64,000 nucleotides of DNA from a virus (lineage: Duplodnaviria > Caudoviricetes). The stretch's first letter is position 1; each line of letters starts with the position of its first letter. The notes under the pieces were generated by a model. That model was not told where the DNA came from and did no database searches. It saw nothing but the letters and a program-made list of their open reading frames with translations. Below, piece by piece: positions 18,393 to 53,086 of this stretch. The stretch spans positions 32,460 through 96,459 of the IMG/VR virus record IMGVR_UViG_3300021254_000029. The stretch is one strand, 5' to 3'. The translations under genes and the position numbers were made by a program.

Positions 18393-18632
18393 CTATTCAA
18401 ACTTATCCTTCCACACCAACCTCCCTTCGTCTATCAGGATGTCGACGCATCCCTCGTCGCCGTCGAAGACCTTTGCGACACAGCCCTCGGAGCAGAAGGT
18501 GTCCGAGTCATCCCAGACATAGCCGCTGGTGATGACCTTGCCGCAGACGGCACAGGTTCGCTTCCCGGTGCGGTCTTTTTCTTCGCGCTCGATGTTCTCC
18601 CAATAATCGGGATCGTCTCGTAGTGAATACAT
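18393..18632 (-). CDS. Small acidic zinc-binding protein
   Basis: CAVCG...FCSEGC motif. Confidence 0.65.
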   Translation of the reverse strand: MYSLRDDPDYWENIEREEKDRTGKRTCAVCGKVITSGYVWDDSDTFCSEGCVAKVFDGDEGCVDILIDEGRLVWKDKFE

Positions 18633-18654
18633 AATCTTGTCCTCCTACAATTTA

Positions 18655-19356
18655 TTATTCGGCCTTAATTGCTTCCAGTGCAGTCCTTTTGACGATGCCG
18701 CTCAGTTCTCTTCCATACGAGGTTGCTTCCTCGTACACATTCTCGAAGTCGATAGTATTATGCTCGAAGTCGCTCCAGCCCATCGGGTCCTCATATTCAC
18801 TGCAGGTATTCTCCCAACTTTCCTTGTGACTCTCGATGCAAGTCTTCAGGGACTCTATCCATCCGTCACGATCCTTGATTTCTTCAGGCGTCAGATCGTC
18901 GTCTGCGAAGCCATCATACTCGCTCAGTTCTTCGTCGTGCTTCTCCATCGTCTGCTGGATTGCTTCAATCATCTTCCTGCGCTCACTCTTCCAGGAGTAA
19001 TATCTGTCAGTAGTTACCAGCAGCTCGCGAACAAACTCGTCACTCTTATTGTCCGCGACTGGAGACCATACACAATCCACCAACAGGCATTGGTTATTCT
19101 CCTCGTTCCTGATTGGCCTTTCCGTGATTTCCTCACCCTCTTCGCATCCTTCAGCATAGACAGTCACCCACTGCACACGGTTGTAGTCTATATCATCCTT
19201 CGCCAGAAAATCATCCATCGGGATGAAGTCAGGTGCCCAGCAGCATGGGTGTTGAACTTCATAAATAACGCCCAAATTGCCTTCGTAGTTATAGATAGGC
19301 ATATTCTTTCCTGTTGCAGCCTTAAACTCCTGCTTTACCTGTTCAATAGTCTTCAT
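18655..19356 (-). CDS. Highly acidic hypothetical protein
   Basis: 233 aa, D/E-rich. Confidence 0.7.
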   Translation of the reverse strand: MKTIEQVKQEFKAATGKNMPIYNYEGNLGVIYEVQHPCCWAPDFIPMDDFLAKDDIDYNRVQWVTVYAEGCEEGEEITERPIRNEENNQCLLVDCVWSPVADNKSDEFVRELLVTTDRYYSWKSERRKMIEAIQQTMEKHDEELSEYDGFADDDLTPEEIKDRDGWIESLKTCIESHKESWENTCSEYEDPMGWSDFEHNTIDFENVYEEATSYGRELSGIVKRTALEAIKAE

Positions 19357-19458
19357 AGTTTTAAGTTTTTAGTGTTGTTAAACCATTCGTTTTATGTTTT
19401 ACAACACATCGGACGCGAAAAATGGTAAATAGTAAATTGTCAAATCGAAAATTTACAT

Positions 19459-19466
19459 TACCTTTG
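19459..19466 (+). promoter_or_regulatory. Bacteroidetes -7 promoter element driving the sRNA
   Basis: TACCTTTG with TTG about 20 bp upstream; antisense to all flanking genes. Confidence 0.7.
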
Positions 19467-19492
19467 CAACGCAATCCGATGGATTGTCATTC

Positions 19493-19519
19493 GTCAGCCC
19501 TCGGGCTGTGGATTGAAAC
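19493..19519 (+). CRISPR. Solitary type I-C-like repeat
   Basis: GT-CAGCCC-TC-GGGCTG-TGGATTGAAAC: hairpin plus the I-C 3' handle TGGATTGAAAC. Confidence 0.75.
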
Positions 19520-19535
19520 GAGCTTACGCTCTCAC

Positions 19536-19555
19536 AATTTCTACTGTATGTAGAT
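19536..19555 (+). CRISPR. Solitary type V-A (Cas12a) repeat
   Basis: AATTTCTACTGTATGTAGAT matches the AATT-TCTAC-loop-GTAGA-T Cas12a handle. Confidence 0.88.
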
Positions 19556-19570
19556 GACCGCAGATGCGGT

Positions 19571-19598
19571 GTCAGCGCCTGGCGCTGAGGATTAAGCC
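19571..19598 (+). CRISPR. Second class-1-like repeat mimic
   Basis: GT-CAGCGC-CTG-GCGCTG-AGGATTAAGCC; same architecture as 19493-19519 with a variant handle. Confidence 0.55.
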
Positions 19599-19623
19599 CC
19601 GTGGCCCACCCACGGGGCTCTTT
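19595..19623 (+). terminator. Intrinsic terminator of the sRNA
   Basis: AGCCCCGTGG/CCACGGGGCT 10-bp stem then CTTT. Confidence 0.7.
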
Positions 19624-19632
19624 CGTACCTGC

Positions 19633-19698
19633 TTACTTCAAGCCCATCTTGAACATGCAGGCAATCATAATGATTGCAAAAATCCAGTTTTCTACCAT
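19633..19698 (-). CDS. 21-aa hydrophobic peptide
   Basis: MVENWIFAIIMIACMFKMGLK with an A-rich leader like neighbouring genes. Confidence 0.5.
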   Translation of the reverse strand: MVENWIFAIIMIACMFKMGLK

Positions 19699-19718
19699 AG
19701 TTGTACGTTTTTTAGGGG

Positions 19719-20654
19719 TTAGACGTTAAAGTACTTCTCATCAATGATGTCTCGGATATCATCCTCGAAGGTATCAAGGTCTTCGACAATAGTCTTGGAC
19801 CAGAACTCGGTGGGGTTATTCTCATAGTCGCTACGCACGGAAGCGGCAGCAGCTGCGGCGTCATCATACTCGTAGAAATTGAAAGTCTCGTTCAATACTG
19901 AGACAAGATGTTCCTTTTCCTCGATGAGCATATCTCCCCATGAGTTAAAAGTCTTCTTCCGAAGGTCTTTCAGATAGCTCTCGATGTATGCTTCGGCCTT
20001 GAAGTTCCATTTCCACTCTCCTTCGCCGCACGAACAGCCGTCGTGCAGGCGCTCCTCAATCAGGTCGTAACGTTCTTGCGGCGACAAGCCTTCCAATTCC
20101 GATGCCTTAACCAATACGCTGCACTGGTTACGGAACGTATGGTCTTCGTGAATGCACATCTCCGTGGTTTCGCCATACATACCTCTGCGGATGTCGCGGA
20201 TGCCACGGGCATAACCGACATACCGATCCCAGTACCAGATGACCAAGATGGCGCCTGTGACGCTCTCGTATTCGTAGGTGATACCAACTTCATCGCGGAC
20301 GTCAATGTCACTGACGGAGGCAGCGATCTTCATCAAGTCATCGTCGCCAAACGCATCCTCGCCATATTCCTCCACATCTTCCCAATCAACGTCTTCGATG
20401 TCGTTGAGGGTGACGTTAGCCTCCATAAGGTCCACCTCGATACGTTCACCGAAGTCGGCCTTCTTAGCGCCGGACACTTCGCGAAGCTCAGCCTTCGCCT
20501 CTTCGATGTCGAAATATAGGGTGCCAACGTTGTCAACGTCTATAGGGTCGTCACTCCCATGTTCGCCATCCTGATAGGTATAGATACGGATAAACCATAC
20601 CTTCGCTGCTTCGCCCGTAGCCTTAATATGCTTAATAAAATCTATTGCTTTCAT
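19719..20654 (-). CDS. Highly acidic hypothetical protein
   Basis: 311 aa, very D/E-rich. Confidence 0.7.
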   Translation of the reverse strand: MKAIDFIKHIKATGEAAKVWFIRIYTYQDGEHGSDDPIDVDNVGTLYFDIEEAKAELREVSGAKKADFGERIEVDLMEANVTLNDIEDVDWEDVEEYGEDAFGDDDLMKIAASVSDIDVRDEVGITYEYESVTGAILVIWYWDRYVGYARGIRDIRRGMYGETTEMCIHEDHTFRNQCSVLVKASELEGLSPQERYDLIEERLHDGCSCGEGEWKWNFKAEAYIESYLKDLRKKTFNSWGDMLIEEKEHLVSVLNETFNFYEYDDAAAAAASVRSDYENNPTEFWSKTIVEDLDTFEDDIRDIIDEKYFNV

Positions 20655-20664
20655 AATTTTTAGT

Positions 20665-21117
20665 TTAATCTTTTGTTACAAATTCCAGTTCCATATCCAG
20701 CGCCTTGGCCACCTTCACGAGGATGTCAAGGCCCACGCTGTACTTACCCGCCTCGATTCGGGCGATGTGCTCACGGCTCACGCCCACGGCATCGGATAGT
20801 TGCTGCTGCGTCATGCCGTGTTCATTGCGCACCTGAGCGATACGCTGACCGATACGCTGACGCTCAACTTCTACGTGCGATCTAACGCGATCGCATACGA
20901 GATCTATCCACTCGCCGTTATCGCTCACCAGACAGTCGTTTACGACGTATTGCTGCCCATCTACCTCAATGGTCTCGCTGTCGATGTCGAAGTTCACCTT
21001 CAGCAGGGGGCAGTCCTTGTTGAACGGGATAGTCACGATGTAGTAACTACCCTCATTCGTGATTTCTCGGAAATTTTCAATTAAGAACATAAGTTTGAAG
21101 TTATTGCGTGTTACCAC
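20665..21117 (-). CDS. Protein with C-terminal XRE HTH (Aca-like position)
   Basis: IGQRIAQVRNEHGMTQQQLSDAVGVSREHIARIEAGKYSVGLDIL. Confidence 0.85.
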   Translation of the reverse strand: MVTRNNFKLMFLIENFREITNEGSYYIVTIPFNKDCPLLKVNFDIDSETIEVDGQQYVVNDCLVSDNGEWIDLVCDRVRSHVEVERQRIGQRIAQVRNEHGMTQQQLSDAVGVSREHIARIEAGKYSVGLDILVKVAKALDMELEFVTKD

Positions 21118-52903: not shown

Positions 52904-52974
52904 GGGGGATTGGTGTAATGGTAGCACATGAGATTTTGGCTCTCACAGTGGAGGTTCGAGTCCTCCATCTCCTA
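52904..52974 (+). tRNA. tRNA-Gln(TTG)
   Basis: Cloverleaf; TGAGA-TTTTGGC-TCTCA anticodon arm; GGAGG-TTCGAGT-CCTCC T arm. Confidence 0.9.
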
Positions 52975-52983
52975 CGCTGAAAA

Positions 52984-53054
52984 TGGCTGTTGGTGTAGTG
53001 GCAGCACGCATGACTCTGGATCATGAAGCACAGGTTCGATGCCTGTACGGCCAA
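52984..53054 (+). tRNA. tRNA-Gln(CTG)
   Basis: Cloverleaf; CATGA-CTCTGGA-TCATG anticodon arm; ACAGG-TTCGATG-CCTGT T arm. Confidence 0.9.
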
Positions 53055-53086
53055 CAACGATAAACATTAGCATAACTCACAGCGAT

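Follow-up and report, generated by a model that had tools for sequence, protein, structure and literature searches.

What is the role of a short stretch of phage DNA in which look-alikes of CRISPR repeats of different types follow one another? The DNA analysed here (64 kb, referred to as the window) is the last part of a 96,459-bp IMG/VR virus record that is approximately 80% complete. A first-pass annotation of the window had described a self-contained unit of this kind and proposed that its RNA product mimics the repeats of several CRISPR systems. On direct reading of the sequence, every element in that annotation's list is in place, base for base, and the phage does carry a self-contained unit, with a promoter-to-terminator layout and with the repeat look-alikes in sense orientation. 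We think it probable that this element is a phage gene for a non-coding RNA of ~150 nt that acts as a composite RNA anti-CRISPR, i.e., a decoy resembling the Racrs.

Layout and surroundings of the RNA gene

The RNA gene lies on the plus strand of the window (19459-19625) and is flanked by two minus-strand genes (18655-19356 and 19719-20654). Its parts are given in Table 1. The RNA is predicted to fold as the chain of hairpins listed there, with a free energy of -71.6 kcal/mol (z = -4.9), and none of 200 shuffled sequences folds as well. The U-tract that follows the terminator in the window is weak, consisting of three U only.

Table 1. Predicted features of the RNA gene, in window coordinates.
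Feature	Position	Strand	Description	Basis
Promoter box TACCTTTG	19459-19466	+	Bacteroidota-type -7 (TAnnTTTG); predicted transcription start ~19472	Direct reading
5' leader hairpin	19471-19487	+	7-bp stem, 3-nt loop	RNA fold
Type I-C repeat look-alike	19493-19519	+	GTC, 5-bp stem, 4-nt loop, 11-nt handle TGGATTGAAAC	
Type V-A (Cas12a) repeat look-alike, full length	19520-19555	+	36 nt	
V-A unit, 5' mini-hairpin	19520-19531	+		
V-A unit, linker	19532-19535	+		
V-A unit, handle	19536-19555	+		
Hairpin where a Cas12a guide would begin	19557-19570	+	5-bp stem, 4-nt loop	RNA fold
Second I-C-like unit	19571-19598	+	GTC, 7-bp stem, AGGATT, then five bases of the terminator stem	
Terminator	19595-19625	+	10-bp GC-rich stem (19595-19619), 5-nt loop, short U-tract	RNA fold

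Could such a unit turn up by chance? When up to two mismatches are allowed, the V-A handle pattern is expected 0.07 times in the window; it was found once, and there as an exact match. The 11-nt I-C tail alone is not unusual by chance in a window of this size; what gives it weight is the context. A covariance model of the I-C and V-A pair, described below, gives the locus 66.5 bits (E ~1e-12), and in a search with this model the locus is the sole copy of the pair in the whole 96-kb phage. We also considered whether the plus-strand ORFs at 19422-19553 and 19564-19722 might be coding, and rejected this on account of the single-base loop indels and the compensated stem changes seen in the nearest relative.

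Neither cas12a nor a CRISPR array or CRISPR family was found in the 96-kb phage record. At the gathering score, Rfam identifies in the whole phage no CRISPR or other RNA family besides three tRNAs, namely tRNA-Lys(UUU) and two tRNA-Gln (window 13026-13099 and 52904-53055). A TnpB of 425 aa is encoded on the minus strand (window 16712-17989), 1.5 kb from the RNA gene. It contains OrfB_IS605, Cas12f1-like TNB and HTH domains, matches a PHROG transposase with an E-value of 6e-131, and is not a cas gene; no link between it and the repeat-mimic RNA was seen.

The immediate surroundings of the RNA gene (window 18393-21117, minus strand) comprise a gene for an HTH_3 protein (20665-21117) and ORFs of 311, 233 and 79 aa, and this is an acr/aca-like setting. 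All three ORFs lack a Pfam or PHROG match; for the 311- and 233-aa ORFs a PDB sequence match is absent as well, so that no known Acr can be named next door. A 21-aa hydrophobic ORF ends beside the shared terminator.

Recurrence and structure in a phage family

Is the element peculiar to this phage? We searched viral contigs with a key consisting of the exact I-C tail, a gap of 8-30 nt, and then the V-A handle. In this exact search the chain from I-C tail to V-A handle is present in 41 viral contigs, and the 41 loci share one plan: a promoter box; an I-C-like hairpin with its handle; a small hairpin; the V-A handle; usually another hairpin; and a terminator. Three bacterial assemblies contain the same chain, all of them Prevotellaceae (uncultured Prevotella, G001; Leyella stercorea, G002; Prevotellamassilia timonensis, G003), and further metagenome contigs also carry it. 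In the GenBank phage collection, neither the window element nor the commonest family member has a relative. The element to which the first-pass annotation drew attention is thus real and not a one-off: viral contigs, genomes and metagenome contigs place it in a conserved, covarying family of Prevotellaceae phages.

The transcription signals recur with the units. Of the 47 family loci, 42 have a promoter box upstream on the sense strand, and none has one on the opposite strand. At the terminator position, 46 of the 47 have a run of at least four T, the exception being the window with its three T. The flanking genes of the carriers are mostly unrelated to each other, and an HTH gene is nearby in four. 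In a metagenome relative (L231:500-700, minus strand), the I-C unit is immediately preceded by an additional GC-rich hairpin that has no handle; the number of hairpins thus varies within the family.

We are interested in whether the hairpins are maintained as structures. A covariance model was built on the I-C and V-A pair, and 21 distinct members were realigned with it. In the resulting alignment, which was fitted to the model's own structure, 94.8% of the cells are paired, and 6 of the 15 pairs change on both sides (24 cells). The observed covariation score was reached by none of 500 shuffles, and the signal collapses in controls with slid partners. The covarying pairs include two in the I-C stem and all four in the V-A 5' mini-hairpin. 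The stem of the Cas12a handle never varies across the realigned members; since the loci were found with the I-C tail and the V-A handle, the invariance of these two motifs is partly by construction.

One relative, the metagenome contig L229, came to light through another motif. Its V-A stem is unchanged, and its loop is altered by a one-base indel; in its third unit the inner stem is replaced with full compensation, and the tail and terminator are identical to those of the window. The hairpin that follows the V-A handle (19557-19570) is also identical in L229, and is present with an altered stem in L028. Judging from these aligned sequences, we conclude that the structure of the RNA element is under selection.

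The units also occur in other combinations. In a subfamily of loci (L007, L015, L023, L027, L040, L045 and L228), a 30-nt I-B-type repeat is found upstream of the I-C unit as a near-perfect copy. The I-B-type repeat forms arrays of >100 units in Leyella stercorea (An906), which is itself a carrier of the I-B version, and a closely similar repeat is labelled I-B in the supplement of PMC10651486. No viral contig has the I-B-type repeat directly before the V-A handle. In this three-type version (L007:9088-9260, minus strand, and the other members), one and a half I-B-type repeats lie within a long-range clamp stem, and the I-C and V-A units follow. A likeness to Cas13b repeats was considered for the leader of this subfamily and dropped; the stretch is better explained as the clamp stem around the I-B unit.

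The order of the two main units can also be reversed. In five contigs that belong to two sequence families (L223:3990-4170 and L226:415-560, both plus strand, and L224, L225 and L227), the V-A look-alike precedes the I-C look-alike. Here a promoter box is followed by a bare V-A handle, which is predicted to open the transcript, and, immediately after it, by a full I-C repeat; the 3' part is a stretch of ~42 nt in one family and a small hairpin in the other, and then comes the terminator. The two gene orders imply that the fusion of I-C and V-A look-alikes arose more than once.

These comparisons bear on the simplest alternative to a decoy, namely that the locus is an inert relic, a recombination scar, or a structured RNA or terminator region without a CRISPR role. 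Such an origin would agree with the 11-nt I-C tail, which alone is not rare, and with an Rfam scan of the locus that yields only a weak CRISPR-DR10 match (E = 5). It does not agree with an architecture kept in >45 loci with unrelated flanks, complete with compensatory changes, sense-strand promoter boxes and terminators. Moreover, L229, the nearest relative, is 91.6% identical across the 167-nt unit while the surrounding DNA does not align, and the units occur in two independent gene orders as well as in a version with I-B. A relic, scar or role-free structure is in our judgement quite unlikely.

Host repeats and the identity of the units

Which repeats do the units resemble? Two CRISPR loci are present in the carrier genome G001, one with cas12a and an array of 17 repeats, the other of type I-C with an array of 18. 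The V-A repeat of G001 (36 nt) is composed of a 5' mini-hairpin, a short linker and the 19-nt handle that is found in most family members. Its I-C repeat (32 nt) is composed of GTC, a GC-rich hairpin and an 11-nt handle identical to that of the window, and the I-C arrays of both G001 and G003 end in the window's 11 nt. In 12 host V-A repeat consensus sequences, a 5' mini-hairpin is present ahead of the handle in eight or nine. The first-pass annotation's view that the units resemble host CRISPR repeats, I-C and V-A systems both occurring in Prevotella, is borne out by these Prevotellaceae arrays, which carry the handles in question. The exact V-A handle of the window, a loop variant, was found in none of 401 sampled host genomes.

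The host repeats also change how the element is divided. The stretch 19520-19535 had been taken for a first spacer; it is really the part of a 36-nt V-A repeat that contains the 5' mini-hairpin. Joined to the handle, it makes a full-length V-A look-alike, so that the I-C and V-A units abut without a spacer. Across the family the V-A unit is 33-39 nt long.

The third unit had been proposed to mimic a second class 1 system. The family comparison gives another picture, with an I-C-like hairpin, the first six bases of the handle, and then the terminator: the unit starts with GTC, a stem and (A/T)GGATT, as in the I-C repeat, and then passes into the terminator stem. Homologues with other stems are present in most family members and absent in L023 and L028. 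The tail of the third unit occurs in no array in 151 sampled host genomes, with a maximum of two matches per genome. Used as a key in viral contigs, the same tail gave 67 matches, all attributable to chance and none with repeat context. On the strength of the family comparison and of the lack of a host array with this tail, the simplest reading of the third unit is a second I-C-like repeat, cut short where it joins the terminator. In the arrangement originally suggested, a class 2 repeat nested between two class 1 repeats, a V-A repeat does lie between; the third unit, however, is most simply a truncated I-C-like one and probably adds no further system.

The segment between the window's two I-C-like units measures 51 nt and consists of the V-A repeat and a hairpin, both conserved in relatives, which sets the element apart from a mini-array. 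There is a likeness to viral mini-arrays (PMC11656645) in that two same-type repeat-like units frame a segment, which in several relatives has the length of a natural spacer. The differences are that the framed segment is a repeat of another type and is conserved across unrelated phages, that the second repeat is truncated, and that no target was found. Could the element nevertheless be a mini-array for competition between phages, supplying guides against related viruses to the Cas proteins of the host? Viral mini-arrays are known (reviewed in PMC11656645), and this much speaks for the idea. The family offers no unique spacer-like sequence, the intervals between the repeat units being taken up by a further repeat or by a hairpin that is itself conserved. 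The same "spacers" turn up again in phages of unrelated background, and no protospacers for the inter-repeat segments were seen in the family loci compared. We consider a competition array extremely unlikely.

A related possibility is that the two I-C-like units form a mini-array in which the V-A repeat is a real guide, so that Cascade-Cas3 would be sent against the host V-A array or against rival elements with V-A units. Several relatives have 34-38 nt between the first I-C handle and the second I-C-like hairpin, close to the 33-36 nt of host spacers, and in most members the "spacer" contains the 19-nt V-A handle that is identical to host V-A repeats. The region that would be the PAM-proximal seed is the mini-hairpin; the family preserves its pairing and not its sequence, and it has no match in any of the 12 host V-A consensus repeats. 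In addition, the "spacer" of the window is 51 nt, L023 and L028 have no second I-C-like hairpin, and the reverse-order family cannot work in this way. An I-C guide of this kind is very unlikely. We give similarly slight credence to a mixed form in which a true I-C crRNA has a Cas12a-repeat "spacer" and the same RNA also soaks up Cas12a.

How often do hosts have the two systems? We found cas12a in 13 of 201 species sampled from the host family, csd1 in 15, and both in 2. With cas12a and csd1 together in only 2 of the 201, a benefit of linking both units is presumptive. The carrier genomes themselves have cognate arrays, which are of types I-C and V-A in G001, I-C in G003 and I-B-type in G002.

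Are phages with the element exposed to host immunity? We compared a set of 134 spacers, taken from sampled host arrays, with the phage sequences. For P. timonensis, I-C spacers agree with phage contigs that carry the element at 34 of 34 and 32 of 33 positions, and the matched protospacers are flanked by TTT or TTC. The window's own phage is matched by none of the 134 sampled host spacers, and in the three carrier genomes there are no self-targeting spacers against their own element-bearing regions.

In another genome (G067; L215, ~position 906), a lone V-A repeat handle, followed on its 3' side by a stretch resembling a spacer, is located ~125 nt upstream of a Prevotellaceae cas12a. This solitary repeat is a candidate CreR-like autoregulator.

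Decoy or guide

How might a composite decoy work? The transcription, the binding and processing by Cas proteins and the inhibition that we infer would run as follows. The gene would be transcribed from its own Bacteroidota-type promoter up to its own terminator, and the RNA would display an I-C look-alike abutting a full-length V-A look-alike, next a structured stretch in the position of a guide, and then the truncated second I-C-like hairpin. In a host with a type I-C system, Cas5d would bind the first hairpin and cut at its base; the Cascade subunits would then load on an RNA that begins with an I-C handle and ends with an I-C-like hairpin, the Cas12a repeat occupying the spacer position, and the complex formed would be aberrant or unable to target. 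Where the host has Cas12a, this enzyme would bind its handle and cut off the upstream part, and the remaining self-paired "guide" could not target. If loading proceeds as proposed, each unit would serve as the other's filler, and one small gene could cover hosts with either I-C or Cas12a. The decoy reading draws on the likeness of the units to repeats, their orientation, the architecture, the covariation, the host arrays and the targeting of carriers by I-C spacers.

There is a precedent for each of the two main units. Camara-Wilpert et al. (2023, PMC10651486) showed that RNAs with a single repeat of type I-C, I-E, I-F or V-A inhibit the corresponding system. Like these Racrs (RacrIC1, RacrVA1-3), the element is encoded by a phage outside a CRISPR-cas locus, has host-repeat-like sequence and structure, and has its own promoter, here a predicted one; the RNA gene also adjoins an HTH gene and unknown acidic ORFs. 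Unlike them, it is not solitary. Its three repeat-like units are packed into 106 bp, and class 1 and class 2 look-alikes together with a second I-C-like hairpin make up a single unit of ~150 nt without spacers. It also differs in its host phylum, Bacteroidota, and its anti-CRISPR activity is a predicted one.

The main competitor to a decoy is a guide of the Cracr type, in which one or both units would mimic CreR or CreA and steer Cas12a or Cascade to the host's own cas (or toxin) promoter so as to repress it. Cracrs of types V-A and I-C are known from viruses, consisting of a single repeat, a short guide and a terminator (10.1101/2024.10.29.618823). The element is like the Cracr arrays described there in having several repeat-derived units in one phage transcript (a predicted one here) directed against host CRISPR-Cas, and the V-A version of Cracr, too, is a repeat with a short 3' part and a terminator. 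The ~42 unstructured nt after the I-C handle in one reverse-order family could be a real guide. The element is unlike Cracrs in that the types are mixed here, whereas the units of one Cracr array always address variants of the same type; moreover, no Bacteroidota are among the hosts reported in that preprint.

Does the sequence after the V-A handle behave as a guide would? The stem of the hairpin at this position changes with compensation between relatives, which is unexpected for a guide, and in L023 the V-A handle runs straight into the terminator. No guide to a cas or toxin promoter, which a Cracr needs, emerged from a comparison with 13 regions upstream of cas12a and the I-C loci of two hosts. 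The first-pass annotation had suggested comparing the spacers with host cas promoters in search of a CreA-like role; in these same regions the comparison returns only 8-9-mers at chance level, and among these few hosts there is no PAM-flanked match of at least 10 nt. A 9-mer of the prophage copy in G001, found inside the cas12a coding region of G001 with a TTTT flank, was treated as chance.

Plain sequestration can fail against V-A systems that are autoregulated through CreR, as the same preprint argues (10.1101/2024.10.29.618823). Because decoys can fail in this way, and a candidate CreR-like repeat precedes cas12a in one host genome (G067), repression by a Cracr-type guide keeps some weight, and we rate it as unlikely.

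How does the composite decoy relate to what has been described? In the literature searched, solitary single-type repeat RNAs and same-type mimic arrays are known already, and no combination of I-C and V-A look-alikes was found. The statement that no mixed-type array had been described agrees with this search, incomplete as it is; with the same incomplete coverage, no RNA anti-CRISPR study in Prevotella or Prevotellaceae was found. The published finder drops repeat matches that are <100 bp apart and needs >=90% identity to a known repeat (PMC10651486), and with these two filters a mixed-type class would be missed. If the decoy reading is true, phages would assemble modular RNA decoys as they stack protein anti-CRISPRs, the modules being I-C, V-A and, in the subfamily, I-B, and a large class of such genes would escape current finders by design. 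Likewise, a natural scaffold of ~60 nt that is recognised by both Cas5d/Cascade and Cas12a may exist, and such a scaffold could be of practical value as an off-switch for Cas12a tools. Prevotellaceae are major gut bacteria of humans and animals.

One part of the RNA stands outside the common plan. In the family comparison, only L028/L230 and L229, the closest relatives, share the 5' leader hairpin. The 5' arm of this hairpin is the complement of GGATTG in the I-C handle, and in L229 the promoter box and leader together resemble two I-B-type repeat ends with an insertion between them. The leader hairpin may be a remnant of an I-B unit, or it may be an alternative pairing partner for the I-C handle.
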